A DNA stretch of 64,000 nucleotides from Massalongia carnosa (taxonomy: Eukaryota), in contig OZ287069.1 in the NCBI GenBank assembly GCA_965645245.1, positions 1,860,001 to 1,924,000 of the forward strand. Reading direction: 5' to 3'. Each line of letters opens with the position of its first letter. Position 1 is the stretch's first letter. The notes beneath the pieces were generated by a model, which saw only the letters and a program-made list of their open reading frames with translations, ran no database searches and had not been told where the DNA came from. The translations under genes were made by a program, and so were the position numbers. Below, in pieces: positions 695 through 26,980 of the stretch.

Positions 695-1483
695 ATGTTG
701 GCTAATCCTTGCGTTATTTTTATTTTTGAAAAATTACTGGGCACGCTTCTAAAGAGCGTTTTGATCAGTGTTGGAATGGTTTTTTCTCGAGGTTTTCCTC
801 TGAAGTTGGAAGGGTTGAACCTTGTCCATGTCATCTACAACCTTTTTTCCCCACCCGCTAGCCTTCTCTCCAGGGCTCAAATCATGAGTAGCGAGCAGGC
901 TACCATACGTAGACGCCTTGTAATAATGAATACCGACAAGAAAGATCAAAGCATTACATGGCCATCTGGAGAGGTGGTACAAATTACTCCGGATGAATTC
1001 TCGTCCATCGGCGCGGCTGTCTTACGAGACATTCATAGTAGTGGCCGTCGTCGCCTCGGTTTATCAAGAAGCAAAGCCTTTTTCGAAACACCTAGCGTTG
1101 AAGATATTTTCACCGTGAATGCCTTGGAATATTCTTGAATACACAAATCGCTATGGCGCGGCCTTTCCCCACGTGCATCGAAGTTCGGGAAGCGCGCCTA
1201 CATTCTCACATCGAGTCGTTGATGGAGAGACTGAAGCGGGATGAGGGGATGCGTAAGTAAAGCCAGGGAGTCCGCAATGGTTGCAAACATTGACACTGTC
1301 CAATGGTTCGACTTCGTAGTCTTTGATATCATCGGCGATCTCGCATTTGGTGAGCCCTTTGGCTGCCTACAAGAGATATTCTATCATCCTTTGATCGCTC
1401 TTTTCTGCACTCATGCCAAAGTTCTCAGTAGGCTACCGATCCCCGTTGGATTTCGCCCCCCGAACCGGGTTATCCCGAGATGA
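695..1483 (+). pseudogene. Cytochrome P450 relic (N-terminal half only)
   Basis: GEVVQITPDEFSSIGAAVLRDIH and WFDFVVFDIIGDLAFGEPFGCL resemble the fungal P450 motifs GxVVRIxPxELS and FDIIGDLxFGEPFGCL. They are separated by a stop at 1136-1138 and a frame change; no ExxR or FxxGxxxCxG motif follows. Confidence 0.7.
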
Positions 1484-2036
1484 TGGATGGAAATTGACCC
1501 CGCGTCCCTGTTCGCTCAGGAAAAACGAGACATAATTGATCCATTCAGGGTTGAGCCTGCCACTGCGTGGGGAGGTAAGTGGCGTGGATGCAGATGCGGT
1601 TCAATGGTTGATACTACCCGAAGCAGCGTCCGATCAGCTGAATATCACTGAGCGTGTAGACTAATTGGGTTACTCTACCCACTTCAATTGAGAAAGGGTG
1701 AATAGAAATGCACAGGGAACAGCGCCGTTGCCTTTGCCTTCCCCAGCATCAATGTCGAATTAAATATAAGCCTCGGAACCGTTGTGCCAAGTAGAAATGT
1801 GTATAAGAAATGGTCCGGTTGCAAAGGGATATGCCATGATGCTGCCATAGACTTTGTGATGGCTGGTTCTATCAAAGTCAAGTTTCCTGATGAGAGCCTT
1901 GAAATAATGCAGAGTAGTGACACCCTCGTCGCCTTAAAAACCAGATAGATCATACTCTGACGGCTTTTCATGCCTGCTGCGTATTAGAAGCTGCCTTTTG
2001 GAAAAGCAAAGGTAATGCCATGTTGCTCCACCAGCA

Positions 2037-2131
2037 TAATCGTCGGCCTCGCTTAGCTGCCTCCATACGAGGTGTACCACCTCTGGAGTGGTACACCTCG
2101 TATGGAGGCAGCTAAGCGAGGCCGACGATTA
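2037..2131. repeat. Perfect 44-bp inverted repeat with 7-nt loop (hairpin A)
   Basis: 2037-2080 TAATCGTCGGCCTCGCTTAGCTGCCTCCATACGAGGTGTACCAC is the exact reverse complement of 2088-2131; loop CTCTGGA. Confidence 0.97.
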
Positions 2132-2391
2132 AAAGCCAACGTGTCGTGTTGCTGCCAAGTTATATTCACGTGGTAGATTCTTGTTAAGTTAGCGCACCGC
2201 GTTTATCTTTTCGGGCCGATGATCCGAGCAGATCCCGGTAATTTCGTTGATTTCGAGTTTCTGATAGCGCCCAAGGTGCGCATCCACCGCTTCAACACCT
2301 TAGCATTACCCTCTCGAACCTATGATCAACCTTCGTTTCTTGTATCATATGACTGCTTTCTACTCTTCACAAATGCCGAAAAGCTCTCACA

Positions 2392-5300
2392 ATGGGGCGC
2401 ATTCGACTTCAAATTCACATTTTGCCTTTGCGGGACTCAGGGAGCACAAGCAATCTAGTGCAGTCAACGCGTCAGGAAGTGATTCTACCATGGACAGAAC
2501 CTTGTCCAGAAGATCTCACCATTCAAGAGCTTTCAGAGAAGATAGTCTCTAGCTTTGCGTCTATACATCCGAACAAAGGGTATTTCTTCCACTACATTGA
2601 AGCTTATGAACTGTATATATCTTGGACTAACTCCTTCCTGCGATCAACTAGGGTCCTGAACCTTCACCATGTCGAAGACTTTTACGGGGGAGCGCTACAA
2701 AGTTCATTGACAGTCGGCGATTGCTTTGATGACCGATCGAACAGTACGAAAATCGAGAATTCCATTGTTAAGGCCTTTCGCTTTCCACCTACTGCTAGCG
2801 AGCTGGATGATCCTCTCTGGTTTGCACCGCTAGCTCCAGAATCATCTGCGCGAATACAGAAGCGCCGTTTGGCGCACTGTGCTCCGCTAGGTTGGGAGAT
2901 TCGGCATAATGGGGATGATGCTCAACCCGGGGATTCTGACCTTCTCACCGCAGACGATAGCAGGGCAACTAAGCGACGCAAGATAGAGCATCCGCTGTTG
3001 CATTCAGTACTCGACCCAGATCCATCTATAATTTCCCATCAAGGGTTTGAAAATAGGGTAAACGGTGCTTCTTGGGTTCCCGCTAGATATCTGTCGCCTG
3101 CACTTCAGATAGCAGATTCTCAAGAATCTCCTTCGAGAAAACGTAAGTATCATAATTTTCGACCGTCGTAGATACTAATTATTCCTTAGAACGAAATCCA
3201 TATGGGACCCCAACATCTTTTTCCCTCCAAAGCCCTTCCGGATTAGTATCATTCAAGAAGAACGACTTTCTTACGATTCCAGACTCACCGCCCAATAGGA
3301 CGACTTCATTCTTGAACGGAGCCGACTTGCACACTGGGCCTTTTGAGCCACCTACCGCAAAATTAGAGTCGCCCGAGTTGGATTCAGCCCCCAATGATAT
3401 CCCCGTGGCAACTTCGAGTAGCACTGCTTTGGAGCACGTACGGGTAGATAGCTCAGCCGGTGAAGTTGGCATTGAGGGGTTAATGCCTGTTTCAGAGTCA
3501 TTGATTAAAGGTTCCACTGAGATGTTGGAGCCGGACGTAACTTCAGGAGGCCAGGATGTGTTTCAAGAGCGAAAGACCAAGCAAGGAGCTGCTAGCCACC
3601 TGTTAGCGAAGCAACGTCTTTTGACAAATTCATCCTTTAGATCTGGGCTTCATGGGATGGATGTCATAAAATCAAGTTCTCGAAACATCTTCGACCTAGT
3701 TGATATAGACAGCGAAAACTCCCAGCAGCTCCCAAGGCCATCCACCTTGGAGGAACCTAACAAAATTCAAAAGTCGAAAATCTTCCCTGCTGAGCCCAAT
3801 GATTTTCTTAGACCAACTCTTCCAAATCCTTGGCCGAGCGACCCAATCGCTTTGAAACCACATGCTTCTCACGAGCGGACTGTTTTATTCCCCAAAGCGA
3901 TCGAAAATAAGGAGTCACCAAATAGTAAAATGAATCATCAAGGCTTCGAAGATAGATTACGGAGCGATAAATACATCCACTCAGAAGACCAAGGTCTCAA
4001 AGTGTCCCAGCAGTATCAGACTAAACTGACCATCGCGCCTAGCGAAGCAAAAGAAAGCGTTCAACCGAATTTAATAGGTAAAGCGGCGAGTGTATATTTT
4101 CATGGCGTTCAGTCGTTGGACAGGCTCCAGCCTTTGCCCCAGACAAGCATGTCTGAAGATCAACAACAAGTGGCTGTAGTCAAGGGCATTTTAGAGTCTA
4201 GCTCGACGGTAAATGGAGAGAGCCAGCTGTTGAGCCTAGGTGTTCAAGTTGATGAGTCTCTCCTAGACGTCACAGATCAACCGAATGTAGTAGTGGATTT
4301 GGAAGGGGTTAAGAAGACTGACAATGATTCTCTAATTTCAAAGGATGTTCTGACAACAAGAGGAAATAAATCCGAGGCTGTTGACTCACATATGGTGGAT
4401 GAACAGGCCAAAGAAGAGAAGCTTGCCGAGAAGGAGACGAAACAAACCAGGCTCCCAAAGGATCAGCAGGCCAGAAAGGATGACTTAGCGGAGGAAATGG
4501 TCGGATTTAGGGAATTGATGGCAAAGAAAAGGGCGGATGACGCAAGATTGGCCAGAATGAAGGCTAAAAACAACAATTCCGTAACTGAAAAAGATACTCG
4601 GGCTACTAAACCAAAAGAGGCGAAAGCTAAAGAGACAAAGCATGTTCAAGAGGCGACACTGGCAGAGAAGAAGATAAATTCTACGAAAGTACATGAGACT
4701 CGAGCTGAAGCAGTGAAGCAAACAGAAGAAAAGGTCCGGGAAGCAAGGCTGGCGAAGAGTAATTCTGACATAGTCAAACTGACGGGGAAACGACAGTCAG
4801 CCAGCCTGGCGGATGGTCCTCAAGGACAAGCAAGAGCCGACATTGGGAACTCCAAGCAAAAAAAGTTGACTGGGGATAAAAAGCTTAGCGGCACGAATAT
4901 TTCGATGTCTTCCTGTCAGAGGGAGCCTTTCGAAATCGAGCGCTCTCAAGCTAGGAGTAAAACTATTTCAACGCTGGACCTAGAGGATAGCAATGAGGGA
5001 AGCCCAACATCAGAAAAGCCTCGATTACGATCAAGAGTCGTAAGCCCAAGAGGGAGCAGTTCTATAGAGCAAAACCCAGCAACTTCAAGGAAATCCTGGG
5101 ACGTTCAGGGCCATGGGAATGTGACCCCTTTGGATACACGAAATGATTCAAATCGCAAGCGAAAATCTATGACTCCCGCCTTCCCTACGTCTTCCGCCAG
5201 CATGCTAAGCCAGGGTAGCATAGTCATCTCGAATGGCAAGCCATCCCGCAATCCGATGATTACTGACAAACTACCACGGAGCGCCCTTCGTCAGACTCCT

Positions 5301-6728
5301 AGTACTGCTCGACGCTCTGTGTCCTTCGCAAGTGACTCCGTCACCGTTCCAGACTTTCAAGTGTCTGCAGCTGCAGTTGCTGTTCCGGATGTTACGCATA
5401 GCAAACCCTGCACCGACTTTGGAGTAAGTTCTTTTAAGGGCGACAGTTTGGCTAAGACTCTGTCAAACTTCAAGACTATAAAGAGTAATCCGAGGAAGCC
5501 CAAAGAGTCCCCTGTGATAGATGCTATAAACGATAAGGGACAAGCTAAGCGCAATATTACAAGAGATGTCAAATTGAAAGGACGTTTGAATAAAGCCCCG
5601 CTTCCTCCCCAACAAACAATATCAGAAGAAATAGTGATTTCTTCGGATAGTGAGGAGTCAGCATCATCTTATTATTCAGATGATGATGTTGAGGCTCGAA
5701 CTTCCAAAGCTGGTCCAAGTAAGCGTCGACGATTGAAATCTCAAGCGCATTCTAGCAAAGAAACTCAAATCAAGATTGAGCCAATCTCACGCTCTTCAAC
5801 TCCTCCCAAGAATATTACCAGACCTATTATGAAGCAATCCCCACCTACAATCAATAAAAATGCGAAGCTTATATCCAAGCAATCTTCGACTATAGCTCCT
5901 CAAGTCAAACAACTGGATCAGGAGCTCTCCACCGCTCTGGTAACGGTGATTAGCAAGGCTGAGAAAAATCAACCATCTGCATCCCAACTTAAGGCCGGTA
6001 AGCCCGATAGCAAGCGCTCCCCAACTCTGGATGGAAATATTGATCCTCAGATACTTGCATTTGAGCCCTCTGAGACATCAAGCCCTCGTGCGCCTGCTCT
6101 ATACATGTCCAGAGCTGTGTCGCTCAGCTCCGGCTCTACCAACAGTAGCATGTCTGGCTCTGAATCTGAGGATGGTAATGGCTCATCGCCGATGCAAACA
6201 GAAACCATCCTAGTGAAAAAGGGAGAGGCTAGCCATGGAAGGGTGTCTGGCGGCACCAAGGACAATATTCAGATCTTGCAGGAAAACTCTACCGTACAAA
6301 ACGGCAGCGGATTCTCCTCCCGGTCGTCCAAAGCGTCCTCTATCAGTTCCCGCAGTTCCGAAATAACAGAGCGTAGTGCCTCAAAGCAGACCGAGTGCGA
6401 GGCTGATGAGCAGTTACAACGAGAATCTCGTCAGTCGACAGAACCTTATCGCCTCGAGGACTCAAAATCGGTGCTCCTTAATCCAGTCGTAGCCGGCAAA
6501 CTCAGGAATCCGGCTTCTAAAGCCCGTCCGGCCAATTCCCGTTATCCAAGCATGACCGAGCTAATGAACAAACGATCAGCAGAGGTAATGTCTCGACCAC
6601 TCAGCCACCGCCCAGATTACATTACACCATCAAAGTTCGGCCGATCTAAGGAAGCGGCTCTTTCTCCGTTCAGCGTCTCTGGCTCCAGCAGCAGTGCGTT
6701 ATCAAGCAGTGATGATGGTGACAGTTGA
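2392..6728 (+). CDS. Large low-complexity protein with probable Net1/Dnt1/Tof2-type N-terminal domain (putative nucleolar Cdc14-binding protein)
   Basis: ORFs 2392 and 3312 join in frame through introns 2580-2651 and 3143-3189 (GT..CTAA..AG). The N-terminus RLQIHILP..LTIQELSEKIVSSFASIHP..LHHVEDFYGGAL..TVGDCF resembles the Net1/Dnt1 N-terminal domain; the rest is S/K/E-rich. The gene is well supported, the family call less so. Confidence 0.6.
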
Positions 6729-7316
6729 GGGTGCGTCATGTCTTATTAGTTCCCTCGTATTCGTTGTATTTGTGGGCTGTCAAGAAAGGTGGTTGCCATG
6801 ATGCGTCGTCAGCGAAAAACGAAATGTACATTACGAAGATGCCGATTACAGATTCTAGGATATATTTTGCTCATAAAGATTGGGCTTGGATGAAACTAAA
6901 CATGAATCGGAGGCGTTGCTCTGGCTGCATATTTGGTGACCCCCTTCGAGGAGGGCAATACTAGTTGAGGCAATAATAGGGTTAGTGCTTGTACCCATTA
7001 TTCGTGTTTATGATTTACAACAGCTATATCAATTATCTGGTGAGGTACTCAGCAGGGCGCATTCGAATCCTATCATGGTTTATTGATGCGCCACGTCAAC
7101 TACGTATAGTCGATGCCTCCAAATTGAATTTATACCTAAGTATTTTGACCCTTCTTCCAGCTCGTTGGTTTTTATGAGCCAAGTGCCGTTCTAGAGTCGA
7201 GATACCAATTTTTTATCCACAACTGCATTTAAGAAGAGGAGTTTATGAGGTTGCCTTGGACTTCTCTTCGTTTTCAATCAGATTCTTGCTCATTCTTGGC
7301 AAGAAAAAAACCTAAC

Positions 7317-10300
7317 ATGGTGATCAGTTCCGTTTTGCTGTTGCTCTTGGGAACAGACACGTTTGTTAGTCCTCCGCTAGTGCCTGTCATATTTTGTCGT
7401 GCCGATGTCTGCCCCGATGTCACTGTCGTTGTGACGGTGACCCAAAGCGTAACAGCTAGCAGTCTGCCATTACCTGTGTCAACTTTTCCTTCTACGGAGC
7501 TATTGAGCAAGTTCACAGAGTCCCGACAACCCCATGATCTTGACCCTTTCCTCTCCGACCTTGGCGATCCCTTCCACGGACCTGAGCAATATATTACCTA
7601 CTGTACCAACAGCGCCATTACCGCCCCTTGGGCTATCCCTAAGCACATTCTTGCCTAGCCTTCGAGTGCTCTTTTCCACCAGCGGGGACAGTCTGTAGCT
7701 ACTATTGACGGCATCTTTAATCGATAGTCTTACTACCTCTTCATGGACAAACTCTATTGTTCCATCTTTGCAGTCAATTAAGATCCTAACTCCCACTATT
7801 TCCGTATCGATCTTGCTCCCCTCACGCAAATTTACGGTAGTGTCGCCAATACCTCCTACCCTCTCTGCAGAATCCCTACCGACGACCATTTCGCCAACGG
7901 TCGTCCTACTTTACACGTCCAACTGTACTTTCAACGCGGACTCCCTAACCATTTCCTTGGAAACAGCATCATCTGTGATGGCTTCGTCACCGACGAGATT
8001 TTTTGCCAACCCTTATACCCATCCTTTCATCAACCTTCTCGCAAGTGATTCCTTCCGAAAACCCCCCATTACAGAAATTCTTCTTTATCCACCCTTTCAG
8101 CACTTCCTCGCTGTCGCTCTCGATCTTCTCAAAAATAGATCCATCGCTAACGGTATCTAGACCTATGTATTCCTCGATCCGATCCCTGTTCTTGCTAACA
8201 GCCTCATCTGAAATGATTGATTTCTGATCCCAATGCATTAAGCCTCTCGTCACTATCAGTTCCAACCCTGTTGAATTCTTTACCTTCGCTTTTATCAAGC
8301 CCCTCTTCTCTATCAATTAACTCTCTAACGGTTTTCTCATTTGAGAGTTCCATCCATAAAAATCCCCTCATATGTCTTCAACAACGCTCCCTGCTATGAC
8401 GGTTTCTTCTTTAGGAGAATCTTCATTAATGATTCCCTCCTCATCTATACCATCTATAACAATCTCACCACCCATAATTTCTCTTCAAATGCTTGTGTCA
8501 CCCCTCTCTGTGGAAATTGCTTCAATGATCACAGTATTCGATGTTTCAATCTCAACACTCCCTTCTAAGACAATCCTACCAATAACAAGTCCTTCTCTGA
8601 CGATCTCCTCACCAATAATCCCCTCATTATCTGTATCTTTACCTACTGGTTCTCCACTAATTACATCATCTTTGACAGCTCCCTCACCTATGTTTTCCTC
8701 ATTCCCTCCCTCAACCATAACAACTCCCTCAGGAACGGACTTATCCAGCACATTTCCTTCATTAACGATTTATTTATCAACAACTCCTTCACCAGCTATA
8801 TCATCGTTAATTAGCTCTTTACTTATGTTGTCTTTGGTGGCTCGTCCTTCAACCCTCTCTCTACCAACAGTATTTATGCTAGATTCGTTATCATAAATTT
8901 GTTCATTTCTACATTACCTTTAACATCTTCAACCTCTGATGATTCCTTACTCCCGAAATTATCTATGCCATTTCTAAGCCTGACCTCTACAGGTATACCG
9001 GTTGCCCTGTCCTCATTCTCGCTTCCTGCCACACTACCAACGACCGCAATTTCTATTGATCCTACATTTTCACTATCTATATTAATACTACCCTCCATAC
9101 CAACTTTATCAAGCGTTAGTGTAGCCTCGTCGATCTTATTTATCTTGCCAAGTGATGCCATCTCGATACCGCTCCCAACAACGCTGCAAACCATTGTCTC
9201 CATATCCATGGCCTCGCTAACAAGTTTAGTTTCCATACTCTATCAAAACTCACCAGCCCGACTATTATATTACCAGGCTCAGACTCTCCCAGTACTTCAA
9301 ACCCAGCTTTGCCAATTGCTATACCCTCACTGAGTAGCTTTAGCACCAATCTTGGGAATATCAGCTTAGTCCCTACCAGCAGATTTCCCGAAACGTCGCC
9401 TCTACCCACTAGATACACGATTTTTCAATGTTATTTGAGCTCGATCACCTTGCGAGGGTCCTCGATTCCTTCTATAAATGGCATCTTAACTTTATTACCT
9501 GAATGCATAGATCTTCAATGCACTCTGACATCAATCGCATTGGCGGGAGCGTCGACTGCTACCACCAATACTGTTATCACGCATCCAAGACCCACGCTTC
9601 CCAACTCCACAACTCCACGCTTCCAAACATCGCGGATCCAACTACATCGGCCCCTATCATCATGCTCCCTGTTACCAGCCCTTCAAGTATGTCTCTTCTA
9701 AACATGACGCTTTCAAGCTTCACGCTTCCAATAGTGTTGCTAAGTGATTCAATCTCGGTATCTTTGCAAGTTGTTACTCTGTCCAATGTCCTGCCCTTAA
9801 GCATCATACAACCGTTTCATTTCCGAGCGACTCGGTTTCGATACCTTTACCAAGCGTTTCCCTTCCGGACATTGCGCCTACAAGGCTTCGTACAAGTTTG
9901 CCAACGACCATCGTCCCCATCATTAACATATCATCCATTACGACTCCTGCTGTGGTCATCTCCACCCTCAGTGTCTCAACTGCTTCATCTTTCACTGAGC
10001 CCATAGTTGTTCTCACCACCACCAGCATTCTATTCGTTACCATTCCCGTTGCAGTATTACCTACCATCAGTATTTCAATCGACCCAACTCTCGATGGTTC
10101 ATCTGTCAGTGTCGCCGTTAATCTATCTCCTAGAAGATCCACAGCTAATTTACCAACCATTACCGTTCCCAATGTGGTTGTACCCACCCGCAATGTCCCA
10201 ATCAACACATTCATATGGATGGCTATGAGCAACATATCATTAATTACTATTCTTGCTGTGGCTATACCGACCTTCGGTGTTTCGATCAAGCCATCCGTCA

Positions 10301-11507
10301 GCGTGCCCACCCTCGTCCTTCCTACGATCAGTGTTCCATCTCTTTCTGCTAGTATATCCGTCAGCATACCATCTGTGGTCATTTCCACTCAGCGTGAGAA
10401 TTACCCCATCTGTCAGCCTACCTTCGGGGGTTCTCCCTGCCATCAGTATTCCCACAAATATTATCCCTGTTTTCTTTGTTCCAAGTATTACCAAGCCCGC
10501 TGTCATCACCTCCACGCCCTCACCCACCATAACAACCCTCCCATATGACTTTACTGACCTTCTCTACGTTAGCGCTTCGCTTTCCATGCTTGGCTTTAGT
10601 AGGGGTCTCTGCAAGCATCACAATTATTCCTACCTCCTCTCCGTTGATAAGTTTTGGCGGCACCGTTTCCATTCATATCATCATCTGTCCCGCTCTCTCA
10701 AACTCCTATTCCTGTTGTTACCTTCTCGACTGTTGGTATTCTTTCCGTCAGCATCATGCCAGTACCCATAATTCCCGTCCCTGTTACTCTTGCTATCATA
10801 AAGCCTGGTTTTACTCTGTCGGCTATTATCATCTCCTCATAGGCACAACACTAGCGACCACAACATCGAGTACTCAAACGCTCGTGATCATTACACCTGT
10901 TATAGCCAAGCCGGTCTCTACAATACCCGTCACCATACCGCCGGTGACACTTACCCATGTGACCATAACTCCCGTCACCATCCCGCCAGTCATCATCACT
11001 CCTGTCACAATAATTCCCGTTATCATAACCCGAGCAATTATTTCCCTTGCAGCCACCCTCGCCACCTCCATCACAAAACTCCGCTTCGGCTGCGTCGACC
11101 TAATCTGCTTCAATATTTTCCTCGCCGGCATCGGCCTCAACGCCAACATCCTTCCCACTACCATTACCGGCGGTGCCATCATTGGCGTCGGTGTTAACCT
11201 CGACTTGAATCCCACCACCATCGCTGCCGTTGCCGTCACAGCAAAGCCTAGTACCCTTGTCACGCAAATCTCTTCCCCATCAACCGCCACAACGAGGATA
11301 ACCTCATCACACGCAACGCCAGCTTCAGTGGTATTCACATCATCTAGCATGGTGGCCGTGCTCCCGCTCACCTTCAAGATTGGCATCAGAGAGGAGAGCA
11401 CGCCCGCGATGGAGGAGACGGAAGCGAGTGTAGGGAAGAGAACTGGGGGGGGGGGCGAGAGGAGGTGCCGCTGCCGTGAAGGCTCGGTTAGCTTAACAGA
11501 TCCCTAA
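7317..11507 (+). pseudogene. Decayed secreted Ser/Thr/Pro/Ile-rich mucin/adhesin-like gene
   Basis: Hydrophobic start MVISSVLLLLLG at 7317. The same S/T/P/I/L/V composition (PSISI, PTITV, PVTIP) continues for ~4.2 kb but switches among all three + frames, with many stops. Confidence 0.6.
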
Positions 11508-12841
11508 CCCGCCAAAAAAAATTTGACGCCCTTCTTCATGGTCGGGCATGCTAGTCGGGTCGGGAAAGACCTCGTTTATCAAGATGACCGGGATGGCTAT
11601 CAGGGCACTGGGCCACTTAGAGTACACTGCGCGACAAGATTTTCCAAGCCGTGGTGTTTGTTGTTTTCTCTTACAGAAATTCCAAACAACCATAAACCAA
11701 AACCCAAAGACGAAATACATATCGCGGGCAACCCGGTCCGAAGCTGAAGAACTGCACACAAAACCCCGGACAGACCTTCCTTCTTCTTCTTCTTCCTCCC
11801 TTCTCATTATTTTACTTTCCCTCCTACCCCGGCACGGCACACGTCCGATTTTCCCAAAAAGCACGGGGAAATCGCATCCATATATGCAAACATGCAATGA
11901 TCCCCAACGTATCTGTCGCCTGAGGGTTGGGTAAAAAAAAATTTTAAATCACCTTACTCCTTAATGTTTGTTTATGTGTTTTTTTCCCCGATGGTTTATT
12001 AAATAATGAAATGAGTGGATAAGCTCTTTTCTGGGAGCGGGAGGGGGGAAAGGTTTGGATATGGGATGTGGGATATGGGATATGGGATATGAAATGCATT
12101 GAAGGGGGAAGTGGTGAGTGTGTTATGTAACGTGCAACTTCGGTGGACGATGCAACGGGTTTTCTGAAATAGTATTTAGTGATGGGTTTCGCTTCTTTTT
12201 TTTGGGGGGGGGGGGGGGGGGCTGGCTTTAATGGTACAGGAGCTTCCGAGATTATGGTCAAGTTATGTGTATAGCTGTGTGGACGGGCTTAGGGGGGAAG
12301 GTTCGAGGGGATACATAGGTATTTTGTATGGGATACCTAGGTAGGAGTGACGCATTCCTAGTTGAGGGGGGCGGGGTATGGAGGACATGTGGTTTCATCA
12401 GAAGGGTCGCTGGATCAGCGGGTGGAGGGGAGGGGAAGGGGGGGGGGTTCCGGCAGGCGGGTATGGGGATTAATGTTTTTCTTTGAAGGCAGCTTTTCCG
12501 TATTGAAGGCAAATCTTTATTCTTTTCCAATCGATTGCGGGATTTGTATTCTGAACGCTCTTTGTAGTGCAACACCTGGAAAGAAACCATCGATCGCTGG
12601 CAGTTGTCCATTCTTTAAAATCACGGTCATACAGATCGTTTTTACCATAGTGCCCCAGAGCCATGTATTATTCAACGCCTGCCCGTCCCTGGTTCACCCA
12701 CAGCACCCGGTAACCTCCCTCTCGTCACTACATAGGCGCAGTAAGCGTCAGCTAGAATACTTTAAATAGATGTTGTAAACATCCGGTTTTTATGTTGCGG
12801 TGGGAGAGTTTTGGGGCGGGGGGCGGGGGAAATATCAAGAC

Positions 12842-13703
12842 CTACTTCGTAGCCAGCTGCTCCCAATTGAAGATGAACGCGCCGCCGAAAGCTCCGATCA
12901 GGATGCAGATGATAAAATAGCCGTTGTAGTACATGGCCAGGAGCATGACAAAGTACGCCACTGCGAATTGGATCATGTGCAGGCCAGCGCGGACTAACTG
13001 CTGAAGGAAACTTGGGCGAAAAGGTCGAACGTTGCGGGAGTTTCTCGGTCCATACGGCTGGTTCTCAGAGAATGTCTCATCGACGCGACCCAGGTCTTTG
13101 CTATTGCTATCAGCGCGGCCGGTCGAGGAAGGACTCCTGGACGACGTGTTTTCATGGGCGCTTGAGAAACGGGGGATTTGGTGCTTGAACTGGTCGACAA
13201 TGTAGCGATCATACTCTCGCCCAGCACGACGCAGAAATTCAAGGGAGATCACGAGGAGAATGACTCCGAGGCAGGAGCCTGCAAACATCCCGTTGGAAGT
13301 GATACGCCATGTGGACGAGATGAAACCTAGCATTCCCTGATAAGATACTGACGTTTCACCCAGAACGCTAGGCAGGACGAATAAGTCATGATGATTGACC
13401 TACATGCGTCGACCGTATTCCAGTTCCAAAGCATCTGACATTGATCAGCAAGATTAGACCGACAATCTATCAGCAAGGCAAATATACCGAGATTTTGCAA
13501 AGACTAGCTCCCCCCATACTCATGTGGCTTGTGCTCGTGGGCATAGCCATTACCGCGGTGCTCGCTGCACTTGGAGCCATGTTCATCGCTGTAGTAGAGG
13601 CCATGTCTAGCTTCTATGGCGATGATAAAATGAGTTTGGCTGCAACTCAACAACTAGATGTTGGCTAACACACTCCCTGGACAAAGTCTGTAAAAGCCAT
13701 CAT
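12842..13703 (-). CDS. Ctr-family high-affinity copper transporter
   Basis: Spliced exons give a Met-rich N-terminus (MASTTAMNMA..VMAMP..HMSM), CKIS|MLWNWNTVDA|CFISSTW, the MxxxM motif MLLAMYYNG and GxxxG (GAFGG). Start is either 13703 (extra short exon) or 13604. Confidence 0.92.
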
Positions 13704-13870
13704 TTTCCTGTAGTCTCCGAGAATGAATGTCATCCATATATCTTGAGCGACACTTACCTTGGGATGTAAATTAGTAGGATCCCTGATGCTGTTGAAGGTA
13801 GATGAACCCGAGGCTCACTTCAGGCAATCCCAAAGGCGAGAAGCTAGGGGAACATTAGAGAGAGACTCGA

Positions 13871-13946
13871 ATATTTATAATCAGTTCCCTTTTTGGGGGG
13901 GGGGATTTTGAGCAAGTTGCTGGGATTAAGCAAATATGAGCAAGTT
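13871..13946 (-). promoter_or_regulatory. Putative TATA box plus tandem Mac1/CuRE-like copper-response motifs
   Basis: TTATAAATAT on the minus strand at 13871-13880. Direct repeat TGAGCAAGTT at 13909-13918 and 13937-13946 (minus strand TTGCTCA), with TTTGCTTA between; yeast Mac1 CuRE is TTTGC(T/G)C(A/G). Confidence 0.55.
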
Positions 13947-14047
13947 CCTTCCATCAATCGACTATCGAAGCGAGTGGCCCGATCTTTCATCCCATCATTA
14001 GACCACCCACATGTGCATGGCCTCCCGTGCCTCCTAAGTTGCATCTA

Positions 14048-15395
14048 CAGTACTAGGTCAAAAGTTTCCGACAGCCCATCAACTTTTTACCCCCCCACTG
14101 CTTTGAATTATCAACCACCAAGTTTTTATTTTGATGCCTTGAAACTTCGTACGATGATTACATATATTCTAGCAACGAGTTTGGGCTGAGAAATATATTT
14201 TGAATATTTCGTATACCATCCTTTCGATTGGATGCAAGCTTCAATCCTCCTTTCCATGCTCACTATTCCATGCTCACTATTAAACTTCTCAACATTTCCT
14301 CATCTATCAAGGCCCATGCTTCTTCCAACGCTTTCCAAAGTACCTCGTGGACCTTATCATCACTACTAGTCACCGAATCGATGTCCGGATTGACTTGATA
14401 AACGAGCTGTTTGAGCACATACCAAACGTGCTCGATGGGATTCAAATTAGGAGAATAAGGAGGCCAATCGATGATTGTTATACCGTTTTCATCGAACCAT
14501 TTCTTCACCTTTTTGGTAGTATGAATCAGTGCATTATCCTGCATGAAAATGAGGCCCGGTTCCCAAATTCCAAGCAGATTATCGTTCAATAATTCCAAAT
14601 ATGAATTCGCGGAGTACCCCATCTTCTTTGCTTCGAAATCGCGGGCCAATTTATAAAGATCTGACCTTTCTCTCCTCCAAAAAGCTCCCCATACCATAAC
14701 CTTGACCTCCTTGCCTTTGGCGTACGGTTGTATCATAGGTTTTTCCATTTTTCCTCCGGAAATCTGAACATCCATTGACGCTGTTTTCCTGACCCCTTTC
14801 CCACCGAACACTCGTCTGACCATATAATTTTTTACCATTGCTCAGAAGTCCACTCACGCCGAAGCAAGCACCATTCCAATCTCCTCTTTGCCACCTCGGG
14901 CGTCAATAAAGGCCGCTTTTTAGCCAGCCAGTTTGTTAGACCGTAGTCTTTGAGCGTCCGATAGAGAGTGGATCGACTGCATTGCACCCCGGCCTCCGTA
15001 CGCAGCTGCGCATAGGTGATGCGAGGATTGATTCGTGCAAATTTGATGGTACGTCTTCTATCGCGATCCGAAAATATTCCAGGCCGACCCGATCGCGATT
15101 TGGACTTTTCGTTGTTGCGTTCTGGGTGCTTTTGAAGAGTGTAAATGACGGTGGTTCGAGGCACATTTAATGTCTTTGCAATTTCGGCCGGTGCATGCCC
15201 CAACGCCTGGGCTCCAATAACCATTCCTCGTTGAAATTGATTCAATTCGGTGTTACGAGGCTCATTACCAGAAATTGAAGCCAACGTAGTGCGTGGCATG
15301 GTGAAATGATGAGGTCAAAGTTGATGGGTTGGAGGGGTTGAAACGCGAAATCAAGAAAATCGCGGGTAGAGTCGGAAACTTTTGACATGGGACTG
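14048..15395 (-). mobile_element. Tc1/mariner (DD34E, impala-like) DNA transposon, copy 1, defective
   Basis: TA at 14046-14047 and 15396-15397. 25-bp imperfect TIRs CAGTACTAGGTCAAAAGTTTCCGAC / CAGTCCCATGTCAAAAGTTTCCGAC (3 mismatches). Confidence 0.95.
14200..15299 (-). pseudogene. Tc1 transposase pseudogene (copy 1)
   Basis: HTH region, GRP, WSDE, FMQDNA-34aa-E in WPPYSPNLNPIEHVW. Premature TAA at 14832-14834, frameshift near 14740 and a 14-bp tandem duplication TTCCATGCTCACTA at 14252-14279. 3' end approximate. Confidence 0.92.
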
Positions 15396-16458
15396 TATCT
15401 GCCCAGACCCTCTGAAAAGAAGCAAAGAAGAAATTCGGACTTGATCATCTCTAAGTCCTCGTCGCCACGATCTCTAATTGGTTTCTCAAGTTTTACTACA
15501 AGAATAGGTAAGAATAAGGTCTATCAGCATTTGTACCTCTCGATCACGATATCGATCATCGATACATGGTCGTTTTTGCTGCAAGTATCTGACGACAACG
15601 TAGAGTACTGCAAACGTTTTCCATCTTTTGACGATGCATTGGAAAAAGAAGAAATGTTGGATTGATAAGGCCGAAACCCCTCTTTCATCAGAGTTCGGAA
15701 TCTGCTTCGTGGTCAATGTTGTGCCGGAACAAGACTTTCAACTTTTGGGAGACTGGAGCACACTGGAGAACAGTGAAAGTTGACCTCTTTGGTTTCGTCC
15801 GTTGAGTGTATGAAATGCAAATAGTTGCGGTTTCTTAACCTTACAATGTCCCACAACTTCACGGCGTGCAAAGCAATGGAGAGTCGTCAGCCTCCTCTGA
15901 ACACACGTGAGAAACCTCTTCTTGCTGCGTACCATCTGTTGTCAGGAATTACTCGCCCTCAAACATTCACTGATTGGCGTGTCTGCTACCCAAGAACCTT
16001 GAGCAGCGGCCTCTCTTACACAAGGTTGATAACTTGCCAAGACTACGACCGTCGCCCGTATCGTGGCTTTAGAGTCTCGGCCACCACCAGCTATTTGAAG
16101 AAAAGGGACATTTGAAATTCTTGCATGCAGAGCACTTCTTCCTTCTCTATTCGACATGGCGCATGCTGGCCATCTGCTGGGAGGAATAGTCGATTGATAC
16201 AGGCTTTCTGTATTGTCACGTGAGGGCTTGGGAAATAGATACAATCCATGATGGTCATTCTTAAAGGAGTCTCAACTGCGCTGGAATTCTGAGAGCCAGT
16301 CTTGTTGGCAGGCAGTTTCCCTCACCGCTAACAAAATGGCCGGACTGGAGAAGCAAAACTCTCACCACATATTTCACAATTTAACGTGAGACGAACGGGA
16401 AAGCGAGTGACAATAACTACACATATCACTATCTAGGGAGGAAGAGGGGACACTTCTG

Positions 16459-16581
16459 AGTGTACCGAGTATCGTACAGTGTACCGAGTATCGTACAGTG
16501 TACCGAGTATCGTACAGTGTACCGAGTATCGTACAGTGTGCCGAGTATCGTACAGTGTACCAAGTATAGTGTATCGAGTAC
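16459..16581. repeat. 19-bp minisatellite AGTGTACCGAGTATCGTAC, 5 full plus 2 truncated units
   Basis: Units start at 16459, 16478, 16497, 16516 and 16535 (one A>G), followed by 14-bp degenerate units at 16554 and 16568. No spacers. Confidence 0.95.
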
Positions 16582-16656
16582 AGAATTGCCTAAAGTAGCA
16601 GCAGCGCAAGGCAGCTCTGCGGGTTAATGATTAGGGCTAGTGGAGGCATATAGTGT

Positions 16657-16730
16657 TAATCGTGCTAGACCACTTTCGGAATGCAGATAAGGGGTGCTCT
16701 CTGCATTCCGAAAGTGGTCTAGCACGATTA
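16657..16730. repeat. Perfect 31-bp inverted repeat with 12-nt loop (hairpin B)
   Basis: 16657-16687 TAATCGTGCTAGACCACTTTCGGAATGCAGA is the exact reverse complement of 16700-16730. Confidence 0.97.
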
Positions 16731-17028
16731 GGGTTAACTAGTTGGGTTCTATCCGTATTCTTGGCAGGCGGGTTTTAATCTTCAATCGGACTTGACTTAT
16801 CTCTCCTCACCCTACTGATCCGTGCACGCACCAGATCACACCCAAACGCAGGGCTCTAGCCAGCATTTACCCTCCCTATCTCGTACCTCGACACTTCGGA
16901 GTTGAATAGCGAGTGATATGTGGGCATTTCAGGACCATGATTCCCCAACGATGTCATGATCCGGCGGCACTGTATGGAGAATACGACCTGGTAGACCAGT
17001 CGAGCCAATCAGCCGTCGGAGGTCTTTG

Positions 17029-17086
17029 CACGTGCAGTCGCGATAGATCCCCATCAACACTTGAGAGGCAATACTGCATACACGTG
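17029..17086. promoter_or_regulatory. Two CACGTG E-boxes (putative Pho4/NUC-1/PalcA sites) upstream of alkaline phosphatase
   Basis: CACGTG at 17029-17034 and 17081-17086, within 175 bp of the ATG at 17202. Confidence 0.5.
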
Positions 17087-17201
17087 GGCATGGAGCTGGG
17101 ATGTACCCAGACAATGACGAGGCTATGCATTTTGCTACAAAATCCAGGCTGGATCTTCCATGCGACAACTTTCAAGCTGCGAACGATCCCTCGCAAACAC
17201 C

Positions 17202-19320
17202 ATGGCCTTCAAGATACCATACATCGCTGCCGCGGCTTCTTTGCTGCTTGGTTTGACGGGAGCACAAACGTTCCAGAGATTGGGGGGTTGTCCAACGTTG
17301 GGATGTATTATTCCTCCGGATCAGTAGGTCCCACCTGGCCCTGGACGAGTCTGTGATCAAGTTAATGAGGGTCAAAGGACCGACTTTCTGGCTGGGCAAT
17401 TCTTCGACATTCGTCTCGAAGTACATGCACCTGTCAATGGAAGTCAAGCGAATGGGGGCATTCCAGATCCGAATTTCACCTTCTCAATTGAAAAAGTTGG
17501 CGGAAGCCCCAAGAATGCTTCACTCTTCTTCAAGGTGGCAGAACCGGCTCTCGAAAGATGGAACTTTACCTGGTATGAAGGTACGTACTGTGCTCCTTTC
17601 ATTTCCATTTCAGCTCTGAATTATGATCCAAACAGATCTCTTCGCTCGTGACGCTTATAAACCCTCGGTTGTCCGTGTCACCTCTAAGGCGTACCGCAGA
17701 GTCGCCTTATACGAGCCAGGAAAGTACACTGCGACCCTCACGTACTATGATGGCACCAAGACCACTGCTTCATGGCTAGTACGCGACCTTGCCACCGTCC
17801 GGAAAGCCAAGAACATAGTGCTTTTCATTGGCGACGGCATGACCACTAACATGATTACTGCGGCACGTCTCATCGCCCACAAGCAGGTCAACGGGCGATA
17901 TCAGTCCCGCTTGCAGATGGACAAGTTCCCAGTCTTGGGTCATCAGATGACGCATTCATTAGATAGCTTCATTACCGACAGCGCAAACAGTGCGACTGCT
18001 TTGTATTCAGGGCATAAAAGCTCGGTCAATGCACTTGGAGTGTACGCTGATAGCTCTAAGAACCCTTTTGACGATCCAAAAGTCGAAAGTATCGCTGAGA
18101 TATTCCACCGGGTGACTGGCGGTGGTGTTGGCATTGTCTCCACAGCATTCATCGCAGATGCCACACCAGGAGCATTGACAGCTCACACGCGCGATCGATC
18201 GCAGTACGGGCAGGTCGTTGATTCTTTCCTCAATGGCAACACAAACTACACTTGGACAAACTGGACCGGCCCTGACGTTCTTTTTGGGGGTGGAGCTGAA
18301 CAGTTTATTCCTGGGCCGGAATCGTATTTGGGTAAAGACTATTATGCCGAGTTTGCTAAGAAAGGCTACAACGTTGTCCAAAATAAGACTTCGCTCGCCA
18401 AAACCTCCAACAAAACCAAGACTCTTGGTATCTTTTCCATCTCCAACATGGCCAAATGGCTGGATCGAAACGTGTATACAGCCAACCTAATCGGAAATCA
18501 AGACTCGCCTGATGGAAGTGGAGGCTCCGCAAACGACCAGCCAGGACTCAAGGAGATGACGCTTAAGGCGATTGATATCCTGCAAACCCGCAACAGCGAG
18601 AAAGGCTGGTTTCTGATGTCTGAAGCAGCATCAATCGATAAACAGATGCATGTTCTGGACTATGACCGTGCCCTAGGCGAGCTCCTCGAGCTTGATGACA
18701 CCATCAAAGCTACATTTGCCCACCTCGCTGCTCTAGGGACGTTAAACAATACCCTGGTCCTTGTGACAGCTGACCATGGCCATGGATTCGATGTGATGGG
18801 AAGCGTAGACACCAAATATCTTGCAGCCCAAGGAACCGATCGCAGCAAGCGCAGCGCAATTGGCACCTATGCCCAAAGTGGCCTGAGCCAGTATACCAAC
18901 CCCAACAGCGAGAGTGGTCCAAGTTCCAATTCATCTTCGCACAACAACAACTCCCTCACTCATATGAATGATACTTTTTTTCCAGCGAATTGGGATCCAC
19001 GCTACACGCTTTTTTCTGCTCTGGGAGCCGATCCGGATCGCCGGGAAAATTATCAGGTTCACAAGTCAGGTCCACGCAAACCCGCTGTCAACATCACAGG
19101 GTTTCCCGCCAACGAATACTTTGTGAACTACAAAGACGCGGTATCGGGATTCATTATCAACGGAACCCTGCCAACCGATGCAGACCAGGGTGTACACAGT
19201 CTAACAGATGTACCTGTCTTCGCCAGTGGGCCATGTCAAGAGCTGTTTGGAGGTGTCTATAACAATATAGATATTTTCTTTGGGTTGGCAAATTGCTTTG
19301 GCCTTGCAAGGAAAAGTTAA
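17202..19320 (+). CDS. Secreted alkaline phosphatase
   Basis: Signal peptide MAFKIPYIAAAASLLLGLTGA; introns 17324-17377 and 17581-17635. Motifs NIVLFIGDGM, TDSANSATA (catalytic Ser), EAASIDKQMH, VTADHGH, GVHSLTDVPVFA. Confidence 0.95.
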
Positions 19321-19391
19321 GGAAAATGAGTGAGGTTAGGAAATCGCCAGGCGATATAAAAGCAGTAAAGCGAGGCAAATGGTGACAATAT

Positions 19392-19612
19392 GATGATGAT
19401 GATTGATTCTTGTACCGATCTGACACCGGCCGAAGGCCGGCCCATGCGGGCTATCTACTTATTCTTACGGGGAAAACCTTTTAAAGGGATAAAAACCATG
19501 CAGACTGCGCCATTATCCCAAACGTGTTCCGTTTCTGGACTGCATTCTTCGCTCGATGTTCTGTGAAATCCTTGACAAAATGAGAGTTATCACTCGTATA
19601 ACAGTTGCGATG
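19392..19612 (-). mobile_element. 3' part of an old 5'-truncated Tad1-like LINE (ORF2 end SQLLYE*, 3' UTR, (CAT)4 tail)
   Basis: The reverse complement is clearly similar to the LINE 3' end at 26076-26229 (ATGGTTTTTA..AAAAGGTTTTCC..TAGATAG..GCCCGCATGGGCCGGCC.). It abuts the TSD copy ATGGTGACAATAT at 19379-19391. Confidence 0.9.
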
Positions 19613-19748
19613 ATGTTTTCCTGACGAATTACTTCAAACTTGCCTTGTAACGGTTATGATACTTTCATTTGTTTGTAAACATCTTGAGATATTGAAATCA
19701 AGAAATTCCATAGCATTGAGTAACAACCCGCTAGTGAGTCATTATATA

Positions 19749-21090
19749 CAGTACTAGGCCAAAAGTCTGCGGCCCCGCACCCCACCAACATTTCAATCAT
19801 TCTATTTCAATCAACAATCAACCACGTCACGATTGCTGAAATGTCTTGAAACTTTACATAATGATTACATACATACTAAACAAGAATTCCCCCAAAAATT
19901 GATTTTTAATATTTAGTATACCATCCTTCCGACGCTATACACGCTTTTATCCTCCTATTCATGCTCTCTATTAACCTCCTCATCATTTTCACATCTATCA
20001 ACGTCCAGGCTTCTTCTAACGCTTTCCAAAGTACCTCACGAACAGTTTCATCACTGCCGATCACCAAATCTATGTTCGGGTTGACTTGATAGATGAGCTT
20101 TTTGAGCACATACCAAACGTGCTCGATGGGATTTAAATCAGGTGAATAGGGGGGCCAATCGATGACCTCTATGCCGTTCTCATTGAACCATTCCATCACG
20201 TTTTTAGCCTTATGTATAGGTGCGTTATCCTGCATGAAAATGAGGCCCGGTTGCCAAATTCCAAGCAGATTATCGTTCAATAATTCCTTCCATATATGAG
20301 TTCGCCGAGTACCCCATCTTCTTCGCAGCAAAATCACGAGCCAATTTGTAAAGATCTGACCTGTCATCTCCCCAAAAAGCTGCCCAGACCATGACACTGA
20401 CTCCTTTGCCTTTGGGGACAGGTTGTATCATCTCTTTATTCCATTTTTCTTTCGGCAATCTGAACACCCACTGACGCTGTTTTCCTGACCCCTTTTCCAC
20501 CGAGCACTCATCTGACCATATAACTCTTGACCAATGCTCAAAAGTCCACTCACGCCGCAGCAAGCACCAATCCAATCGTTTCTTGGCCACCTCAGGCGTC
20601 AATAAAGGTCGTTTTTTAGCCACCCAGTTGGTTAAACCATACAGTTTGAGTGCCCGATAAATAGTCGTACGACTGCAGCCGAGCCCCACTTCTAGTTTGA
20701 TTTGTGCATAAGTGATTCGTGGATTGATTCGTGCATGCTTGATGATATAACGTCGATCGCGTTCTGACAGCACTTCAGGCCGTCCAGAACGTGATTTAGA
20801 CACGCCGTCGTTGCGAATTGAGTGCTTCTGAATGGTGCTCTGCACGGTCGATTTAGTGAAATTAAGAGTCTTCCCAATCTCGGTCGGTGTGTGCCCCAAC
20901 GCCTGGGCCCCAACAATCATACCACGTTGATATGGCGTCAATTCAGTGTTACGAGGCCGATTACCACTTATGGGGGTCAAAGAAGCACGAAGCATGGTGA
21001 AATGATGAGGTGGAAGATGGGGGTTGATGAGTTGAAAACGCGAAATCACGAAAATTACGGGTTGGGCCGTAGACTTTTGGCACGGGACTG
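19749..21090 (-). mobile_element. Tc1/mariner (DD34E) DNA transposon, copy 2, nested in the LINE 5' region
   Basis: TA at 19747-19748 and 21091-21092. 27-bp imperfect TIRs CAGTACTAGGCCAAAAGTCTGCGGCCC / CAGTCCCGTGCCAAAAGTCTACGGCCC. Confidence 0.95.
19906..20995 (-). pseudogene. Tc1 transposase (copy 2) with a single frameshift
   Basis: MLRASLTPISGN..WSDE..FMQDNAPIH..WPPYSPDLNPIEHVW..GWYTKY*. A 4-bp GGAA duplication near 20284-20291 (relative to copy 1) splits the frame. Confidence 0.93.
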
Positions 21091-21123
21091 TAGGTACGCC
21101 TATTACATCGATATCTAAGGGCG

Positions 21124-22605
21124 ATGATGAATTCATTCAATCAGCAAAACGCGTTCTTGAATGAACATAGCGAAAAGAAGGAAAGCTTGCGTGAGAAAAT
21201 CAAGGAGTATCTTGATCGTGTAGGCACTGTGGGTGACCCGGTGGCGTTACAGTTGCTGAAAAATTCAGCAGAGCTTTTGCAAGCGCAAAAGCAGATCGAC
21301 GACGAAGTCGCAAAGGCGCCCAATATCCTTAATGCCACTCTACAATCTATTCAACAAACACTGACACGCATAGAACAGAAGGATACAACTCCCCAAAGCT
21401 ACGCCGCTGCCGCCACGGGGCGAGGTCGTGATGGACCCGCACCCCCAGCGAAGAAAAATGTCAAGTCCCAACCGACTTCAAAGGACAAAACACCTACACC
21501 GAAGGAAGCGCGACGCGCTCGAGAAATCACTGTTCACATAACGGAGAATGCAGATAAGGAAAAAATAAAGCTGATGCCAACCAAAGAGCTGGTAGAAACA
21601 TTGCAAAATGGAGCGGAAGGAATACGAGGAGTGTCGCGCTTGTTAAATGGCGACATAAGGATTCAGACCGAGTCATTGGAGGCAAAGAAAATTCTGCAGG
21701 AAAAGACCGACTGGACCCGCATGATGGCCGCCTCCGCAGCGGTGAATACTCGTACCTTCACTGTAAGGGCAAATGGAATCAGGGTGGAAAACATCAAAGT
21801 GGCCAATCAATCAACTGCTATCGCGTACCTGCAGGCCGCCAACGCACGCCTGCATCCTGCCCTCAAGATCATCAAAGTAGCTTGGTCAGTCAAGGCCATC
21901 AGGGAGAAGAAAGCATACTCCACGCTACACATGGAGGTCGCTACCGCCGAGATGGCCAACCGGCTCATCACCGAGGGTCTGATGGAGGACTACGAAATAA
22001 AAGACTGTGAGCGTTTTACACGCGGTTGCACCATGACCCAATGCTTCAATTGTCAGAAATATGGCCACATAGGTAGATCATGTCGCAATCCCGCCGCTTG
22101 TGGCCACTGTGCCGGTGGACATCAAAGTAAAGAATGCAACTTGGAGACAACGGGGCAATACCGTCGATGTGCCGTATGCGGAGAGAAGGGACACGAGGCG
22201 TGGTCTACAGCATGCAAAATCAGAAAGGCTGAAAAGCGAAAAACTGAAATTGCTATGCAAAATCGCGCTCCACTATACACAATCGAGTCACAATCGCCCT
22301 CATTCCAGTTTCAAGGAGCGCCGACACTCGCAGCTACACAAACGAACGAAATTTCGTCAACATGGAAGATTGTGAACGGCAAGAAAAGAAAAATGCACAA
22401 CGCGGGGCTCTCAGCCGATTTATCACCGGGCTTCCCCCGAGGAGAGCAAGTATCAACCTGGGCTAATATAGGCATTATGAATCCTGAAAACATGATCAAA
22501 GCCTTAGCAAAACCAGCGCTAGGTAGACCCCGCGCAGAATCCGTAGTAACGACAGGTACCCAGGCCACCCCAGTCACAGTGGTCGAAATCATGGAAATCC
22601 TATGA
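21124..22605 (+). CDS. LINE ORF1 gag-like nucleic-acid-binding protein
   Basis: Open 493-aa ORF with a coiled coil, SYAAAA motif and three knuckles CFNCQKYGHIGRSC, CGHCAGGHQSKEC, CAVCGEKGHEAWSTAC. Overlaps ORF2 by ATGA. Confidence 0.9.
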   Translation: MMNSFNQQNAFLNEHSEKKESLREKIKEYLDRVGTVGDPVALQLLKNSAELLQAQKQIDDEVAKAPNILNATLQSIQQTLTRIEQKDTTPQSYAAAATGRGRDGPAPPAKKNVKSQPTSKDKTPTPKEARRAREITVHITENADKEKIKLMPTKELVETLQNGAEGIRGVSRLLNGDIRIQTESLEAKKILQEKTDWTRMMAASAAVNTRTFTVRANGIRVENIKVANQSTAIAYLQAANARLHPALKIIKVAWSVKAIREKKAYSTLHMEVATAEMANRLITEGLMEDYEIKDCERFTRGCTMTQCFNCQKYGHIGRSCRNPAACGHCAGGHQSKECNLETTGQYRRCAVCGEKGHEAWSTACKIRKAEKRKTEIAMQNRAPLYTIESQSPSFQFQGAPTLAATQTNEISSTWKIVNGKKRKMHNAGLSADLSPGFPRGEQVSTWANIGIMNPENMIKALAKPALGRPRAESVVTTGTQATPVTVVEIMEIL

Positions 22606-25600: not shown

Positions 25601-25953
25601 CACTGAGCAAAAAACGACTGAAAATACACACGCTGCTAAAAAAGGCAGAAAGCGCCCTGACAACACAGATCCGCACCGGTAAGATCGGTCTAGCTGACTT
25701 CCTCTACCAGCGACGGGTCCCCGCCGTCACCTCACCGGCCTGCCCATGTGGCTGGCACAGACAAACTCCAGAACATGTAATTATGTTCTGTAGACTTATT
25801 GACAATAGAGAACAGATGTTTTGCGCCGCTGGCACGAACAACTATCAACAGCTGACCGAAACATCAAAAACTCTAAAGATATTAACTGCTTGGCTAATGA
25901 AAACAGGTCTACTGACCCAAGTCTCACTGGCATCTACACTATTGTACAATTAA
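22602..25953 (+). pseudogene. LINE ORF2 (AP endonuclease, reverse transcriptase, C-terminal CCHC), two frameshifts
   Basis: APE motifs QYN, IQEPW, GDFNLHH, SDH; RT motifs KAPGPDGI, YRPIALL, DVAGAFD, GIPQGSPLS, FVDD; CPCG..TPEHVIMFC. Frameshifts near 23568 and 25128; no RNase H domain seen. Confidence 0.93.
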
Positions 25954-26174
25954 CAGTAGTTTCACTTCTCTTTTCCTTCTTATCTCACAAGGCGTCACAG
26001 TTCTCACATGATTTTCGCTCTGCGTCTCCTGTCCGACGTCGACCTGGTGTCACATCGGACAGGTATCAAGGGATATGGTTTTTACACCTGAAAAAGGTTT
26101 TCCATGTAACATAACTTAGATAGCTTTGCCCGCATGGGCCGGCCTACGGCCGGTGACATATCGGAGTATGAATA

Positions 26175-26229
<55 letters not shown>
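26175..26229 (+). repeat. (CAT)~18 microsatellite forming the LINE 3' tail
   Basis: Pure CAT run directly after GAATA at the LINE 3' end and directly before the right TSD. Confidence 0.95.
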
Positions 26230-26609: not shown

Positions 26610-26718
26610 ATGGTGACAATATAAAACAGCAGTATATAAGATAAAGTAATACCTCCAGAGCGTTATTGCCAAAACGAAGATGCCCAACAGGTGCAGGATT
26701 TATGTGCACGTGTCCAGG

Positions 26719-26980
26719 CACGCGGCTGACAAAAAAACCGGACACCAAAACCTGCTTCCTGGAACAAATCAAGCAAACTTTTCAAAAAAACATCTTTTCT
26801 TGAAAATCATTCAGCAACAAAAAAAACCTGAAAAACCTTGAAGTCTTCTCAGATGACAGAACACATATCAATCTTAAATTCCTGAAATTATTAAGTGTAG
26901 GAAAAAATAATTGCATGATATTGTTCTACGCGTAAGAGTGCTCAAGTTTTTGGTGTCCCGGTTTTTTTGTCAGCCGCGTG
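26719..26980. mobile_element. 262-bp MITE with ~32-bp TIRs at a CCAGG site
   Basis: CACGCGGCTGACAAAAAAACCGGACACCAAAA (26719-26750) is inverted at ~26948-26980 with one indel. CCAGG on both flanks (26714-26718, 26981-26985); AT-rich non-coding interior. Confidence 0.9.

Follow-up and report, generated by a model that had tools for sequence, protein, structure and literature searches.

Foldback (FB) elements of Drosophila consist mostly of long inverted repeats that are able to fold back, with arms made of tandem sub-repeats. [quoted passage not shown] The MITEs Gnome, Elf and Goblin of Aedes aegypti were born by internal deletion from Ozma, a Tc1/mariner element, and this miniaturisation is documented as microhomology-mediated (PMC3814204). 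Among fungi, precedents are mimp, a MITE of Fusarium oxysporum, and Guest, an inverted-repeat element that measures 98 bp in Neurospora crassa and was later assigned to the Tc1/mariner superfamily (PMC3227409). Here, we analysed a 64-kb window of the Massalongia carnosa assembly (the whole stretch of DNA under study, positions 1,860,001 to 1,924,000 of contig OZ287069.1, with coordinates counted from its first letter) and focused on two perfect hairpins, A (2037-2131) and B (16657-16730), that have the same seven outer bases. Our data indicate that A and B are probably miniatures, without genes of their own, that derive from two distinct multi-copy families of DNA transposons in a lichen-associated fungus.

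Guest is the closest precedent. Like Guest, A and B come from an ascomycete, measure about 100 bp, contain little beyond an inverted repeat and appear linked to a TA-targeting superfamily. Unlike Guest, they are smaller (95 and 74 bp), their arms match perfectly and the arm sequences of the two are unrelated, the likeness to Guest being one of form. With mimp and the Ozma-derived MITEs, A and B have in common that they appear non-autonomous, keep the parent's inverted ends while the interior is lost, have TA flanks and lie near genes. However, hundreds of bp of interior remain in those MITEs, which were amplified as homogeneous families, whereas A and B are almost ends only and their junctions look single- or few-copy. 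The FB elements resemble A and B in being mostly inverted repeats that can fold back, but the arms of A and B are only 31-44 bp long, and neither 2037-2131 nor 16657-16730 contains a tandem array. Closer at hand, two Tc1-like copies in the same window also have TA flanks, terminal inverted repeats and a high copy number in the same genome; unlike A and B, they have CAGT tips and repeats that are 83-84% complementary over 29-32 nt, with no likeness to the arms of A or B. Among the literature matches listed in full-text searches with a 10-mer of arm A and with TAATCGT, there was no described element with these ends, and entries may exist in repeat databases.

Hairpin A is formed by two 44-nt arms (2037-2080 and 2088-2131; 44/44 bases complementary) around the 7-nt loop CTCTGGA, and hairpin B by two 31-nt arms (16657-16687 and 16700-16730; 31/31 complementary) around the 12-nt loop TAAGGGGTGCTC. 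Both start with TAATCGT and end with ACGATTA, and both stems stop at these ends, where the flanking bases are unpaired (a/a at A and t/g at B). Both have inverted repeats at both ends, and at 95 and 74 bp neither has coding capacity. Downstream of the hairpins, ATG codons lie at 2392 (261 bp from A) and at 17202 (472 bp from B); the one at 17202 opens the reading frame of an alkaline phosphatase (E 8e-67 to Pfam PF00245). An earlier sequence-only reading had reported two mismatch-free hairpins, each a few hundred bp upstream of a gene start and alike only in the outer 7 bp; we reproduced their arm lengths, loops, coordinates and common ends exactly, and the distances to the two ATG codons agree with it as well.

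The hairpins are real and non-random. The window contains 31 perfect stems of at least 8 bp with loops of up to 30 nt, of which 20 measure 8 bp and nine measure 9 bp; the other two are A and B, and no further perfect stem in the 64 kb reaches 10 bp. By comparison, when the window was resampled 20 times under a first-order Markov model, the longest stem measured 9-11 bp. Single-stranded DNA folding gave -59.9 kcal/mol for A (z = -21.1) and -37.9 kcal/mol for B (z = -15.7), and none of the 200 shuffles of either was as good. The word TAATCGT occurs four times on the + strand of the window, twice as the start of a hairpin, and a simple calculation puts the chance that the seven outer bases of two given hairpins match at about 4^-7 (~6e-5). 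Past this 7-mer, the ends of A and B are no more alike than shuffled sequence, as the sequence-only reading had implied: their observed local score was reached by 1407 of 2000 shuffles, and a likeness between the two arms beyond the 7-mer was therefore rejected.

At least half of the sampled words of 1500-11499 were present in five public sequencing runs: three from 'organism A', one labelled lichen metagenome (share 0.84) and one from 'organism B' (share 0.56). The source organism is therefore a lichen inhabitant. None of the nine runs listed as sharing words with the region is an RNA run. The contigs of four public runs (X1, X3, X4 and X5, where X4 is the lichen-metagenome run) were aligned to 1500-17500. 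In X1, X3 and X4, the bins that hold the hairpins had 23-76 times the summed contig depth of the flanks. In bin 2034-2567, this depth was 4988.5 in X1, 30135.1 in X3 and 1912.3 in X4, versus 118.6, 875.4 and 25.1 in the adjoining sequence. The values for bin 16452-16985 were 3565.7 (X1), 30588.7 (X3) and 584 (X4), but this bin also includes a 19-bp tandem array, so the depth there is less clean, which weakens the case at B. One X1 contig runs unbroken over 2104-14074 at depth 118.6; therefore, the excess depth in bin 2034-2567 is carried by hairpin A alone. Placed wholly on the 95 bp of A, it amounts to roughly 200-400 times single-copy depth. As summed contig depth does not equal copy number, we state only that the termini in the genome number on the order of a hundred or more.

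The positions at which contigs break lead to the same picture. The unique flank contigs end at 2065 (X1, X3) and 16685 (X4) and begin at 2104 (X1, X4), 16703 (X1) and 16704 (X3), so that every break falls 27-29 nt inside an arm. Logan contigs use k = 31. For contigs built from 31-letter words, breaks this far inside the arms are as expected if the repeat begins at the outermost hairpin bases. The site of hairpin A is occupied in three samples (both sides in X1, the left side in X3 and the right side in X4), as is that of hairpin B (the right side in X1 and X3, both sides in X4). Single-copy arms, which the sequence-only reading had named as one of three signs that together would make the common 7-mer a coincidence, are thus not what contig depth and contig breaks reveal: the arms are multi-copy.

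The arms also continue into other sequence elsewhere. The left end of family A (2037-2084, + strand), which consists of the 44-nt arm plus CTCT, is common to longer copies: in eight X3 contigs (agreement 0.97) and one X5 contig, it is followed by a common internal sequence, AGTCGGGGAAAGCGG..., that leaves loose ends behind 2084. The right end of family B (16688-16730, + strand), made up of the 12-nt 'loop' and the 31-nt arm, behaves in the same manner, as three X3, three X4 and two X5 contigs (agreement 0.97-1) carry a common ...GAGCCGGTAAGCAC and then the whole loop and right arm, with loose ends before 16688, where the longer copies differ from B. Longer elements with these ends, a check proposed by the sequence-only reading, are therefore represented by nine contigs at 2084 and eight at 16688. 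Since the longer copies carry the loop and the right arm of B together, the 'loop' of B is a continuation of its right end, to which the 31-nt left arm (16657-16687, + strand; the X4 flank contig ends at 16685) is joined directly. The loop of A is a junction of a few bases from each side, CTCT from the left and GGA from the right.

The right arm of A (2088-2131, + strand) is an inverted copy of the left end, and its outer edge, 2131/2132, is the family boundary; X1 joints lie at 2131 and 2132, and the X1 and X4 flank contigs begin at 2104. In two X1 contigs, whose depths (145.6 and 138.6) are near single-copy, the right end of A is linked to other, unrelated flanks (2131->14046 and 2132->12086), indicating that this end sits at other loci; in one of the two, that flank is the Tc1 family's TA-CAGT tip. 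Taken together, the multi-copy arms, the breaks at the boundary and the continuation of the arms into other sequence indicate that a longer, multi-copy element has each arm as its terminal inverted repeat. The idea of transposable elements put forward in the sequence-only reading thus holds for the transposon-type ends and the multi-copy arms, but not for a single family of self-contained fold-back elements, because the arms continue into internal sequence elsewhere.

The same boundaries bear on a different origin, in which the palindromes would come from fold-back or cruciform-generating repair, or would be assembly artefacts, and the common 7-mer would be a coincidence or a recognition site. 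Palindromes are indeed hard to assemble, and the exact junction of B is absent from the short-read contigs of X1 and X3. However, fold-back copying at a break would include flanking DNA, whereas both palindromes stop at the family boundary; the flank contigs of three independent samples (X1, X3 and X4) enter the arms at the same sites; and contigs joining the left arm of B to its loop, with 1-3 additional nt, exist. With a chance match of the 7-mer at about 6e-5 as well, we regard this origin as highly improbable. The site-specific fold-back mechanism suggested earlier likewise finds no support, since the palindromes end exactly at the repeat boundary rather than in flanking DNA, and longer copies exist.

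Of the direct repeats of 2-10 bp, TA alone can flank either element, which then reads ATCGT...ACGAT, and TA also follows ACGAT at two further loci, namely the X1 joints 2131->14046 and 2132->12086. Target duplications longer than TA (3, 4, 8 or 9 bp) were rejected, as no such direct repeat flanks the elements. On the simplest reading, therefore, the common TAATCGT/ACGATTA would be a TA target-site duplication plus a 5-bp tip, ATCGT, as in Tc1/mariner-pogo elements. Each mini-element, for which no strand is assigned, can accordingly be written as TA + ATCGT...ACGAT + TA: mini-element A (2037-2131, 95 bp) has two complete inverted ends with 7 nt between them, and mini-element B (16657-16730) spans 74 bp. 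Families A and B are distinct, yet they have the TA flank and the ATCGT tip in common. These tips differ from the CAGT tips of the Tc1 copies, a difference that the sequence-only reading had already pointed out.

We hypothesize that related cut-and-paste transposases, perhaps of the TA-targeting Tc1/mariner-pogo type, recognise and cut the ATCGT tip of both families. Each miniature would keep only the two terminal inverted repeats (44 bp in A and 31 bp in B) plus 7-12 nt of adjoining internal sequence. Its interior most likely disappeared when repair of the excision gap was interrupted, or through end-joining, and each miniature may have arisen in place or have moved in. The arms would be perfect because the ends of the parents were identical and young, in contrast to the inverted repeats of the Tc1 copies in the window, which are only 83-84% complementary; in addition, the elements may be too short for repeat-induced point mutation. 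The setting fits a transposon origin, as the window holds two TA-flanked Tc1 copies, one of which is absent from X4.

Several observations weigh against this explanation. Neither a full-length parent nor a transposase was found in the 64-kb window or through the arm searches of metagenome_contigs and genome_contigs, where a 28-mer of arm A and a 24-mer of arm B had no exact matches. Within the window, the internal sequences beyond both loose ends had no matches at up to 3 mismatches, blastn-short found no arms outside the hairpins other than chance matches of up to 14 nt, and no other TAATC...GATTA pair up to 12 kb apart had inverted-repeat ends. No joint skipping either hairpin, that is, no empty site, was seen in the four runs, with X5 giving fragmentary coverage; for this reason, TA could belong to the repeat itself and not be a target duplication, and the miniatures themselves are only putatively mobile. 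The call of a superfamily is based on TA, since ATCGT differs from the CAGT-type tip that the Tc1 copies have here. Both miniatures keep almost exactly the inverted repeats, which is tidier than random internal deletion predicts, but only tidy cases would be noticeable as hairpins. Finally, the loop of A is known from the assembly alone, and the left-arm/loop junction of B (16687/16688) is spanned in X1 and X3 only by contigs with an extra G or GAG, the count of exact-junction contigs being zero. These contigs are near single-copy depth (137.2 and 177 in X1, versus about 118-131; 842.9 and 795 in X3, versus about 830-900), and GAG is what a longer left repeat would read. They could stem from further copies of mini-B whose junctions differ slightly, from a small assembly error in the loop, or from an effect of palindrome alignment or filtering.

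The junction contigs also bear on a rival explanation, according to which the hairpins belong to amplified ultra-short MITE families (74-95 bp) that transpose as hairpin-only units and make up most arm copies, with longer copies as a minority or as the source. The depth of the arms, tens to hundreds of times that of the flank, would agree with such families, as would the fact that both occurrences in the window are minimal forms, with no other copy there; moreover, two contigs near single-copy depth in X1 and X3 link the left arm of B to its loop through 1 or 3 additional bases and may represent further copies of mini-B. Amplification of the miniature itself is one of the traits that define MITEs. 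However, the contigs of the B junction, in two variants (+G and +GAG), are near single-copy depth and not at high depth. Longer-copy contigs occur in three runs, and neither an empty site nor a second identical hairpin was seen in the material aligned. We therefore consider this explanation unlikely, and derivation of A and B from longer elements remains our preferred one. An extended form, in which A and B are members of a large hairpin-only population (74-95 bp) that is the main mobile form of an undescribed TA-targeting clade with ATCGT tips in lichen-forming fungi, is a speculative and rather doubtful proposal. In such a population, a favoured mechanism would stop miniaturisation at the inner edge of the repeat, for example a nascent-strand hairpin that ends repair synthesis. 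If true, it would explain both the almost exact retention of the repeats and the B junction variants that differ by 1 and 3 bases, and hairpin-only elements would be among the shortest eukaryotic mobile elements.

The position of the hairpins relative to genes raises the question of function. They could be, or have become, precursors of small RNAs (microRNA-like RNAs, or milRNAs, or other hairpin RNAs) or structures that regulate in cis the genes lying 261 and 472 bp downstream. Long perfect stems in intergenic DNA upstream of gene starts, the strong single-stranded DNA folds (-59.9 and -37.9 kcal/mol) and weak matches to Rfam miRNA-precursor models are consistent with such a role. However, the best Rfam match of A scored 38.8 bits against a gathering score of 57, alike on both strands, and that of B 35.8 against 100; the matched models are animal miRNA families, which suggests a generic hairpin shape, and multi-copy transposon ends explain the stems without any RNA function. 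A role of this kind is therefore very unlikely, and the earlier suggestion of hairpin or milRNA precursors is not borne out, all Rfam matches being below their gathering scores and those of A equal on both strands. As transposon derivatives, perfect 31-44-bp palindromes upstream of genes could nevertheless form cruciforms or double-stranded RNA and thereby affect those genes.

If A and B are indeed such derivatives, the common 7-mer is accounted for by a transposon tip and its TA flank, and a new hairpin-making mechanism is not needed. They would then represent DNA transposons of which little more than the bare minimum is left, the two ends that a transposase binds, in a lichen-associated fungus; mobile elements in this group are little studied. 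The same 5-bp tip in two unrelated families hints at related transposases. This would be ordinary transposon biology in an unusually small form and would not surprise a transposon specialist.

The window itself is fungal in content, with a Ctr copper transporter, an alkaline phosphatase, a class IV aminotransferase, two Tc1-like transposase remnants (DDE_3 and HTH_Tnp_Tc3_2) and a long interspersed nuclear element (LINE) with endonuclease and reverse transcriptase. Upstream of hairpin A, an open frame at 1235-1483 (+ strand) resembles by eye a cytochrome P450 fragment; if so, A sits between two + strand genes. Upstream of hairpin B, at a distance of 90 bp, lies the 19-bp tandem array (16459-16567; 5.7 copies, 96% matches). 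It is two units shorter in X4, where a joint from 16458 to 16497 skips 38 nt, showing that its copy number varies.

The first Tc1-like element (14046-15397) reads TA-CAGT...ACTG-TA, with inverted repeats of 84% over 32 nt and a DDE_3 remnant. It is absent from X4, in which 14025 and 15396 are linked in one contig through 17 other letters that resemble the diverged pre-insertion flank, with a single TA left. The element is thus a presence/absence polymorphism, and the depth of its family is roughly 250 times that of the flank. The second Tc1-like copy (19747-21092) is also TA-flanked. Together with the LINE at 21094-25953 (zinc knuckle, endonuclease and reverse transcriptase), it is enclosed by a large inverted-repeat pair at 19390-26189 (62 nt at 85% and 50 nt at 78%) that adjoins (ATG/CAT)n runs, and this region may be a composite or nested element. 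Further downstream, a 272-bp MITE-like element (26714-26985) has an A/T-rich interior between terminal inverted repeats of 28 nt that are 96% complementary.

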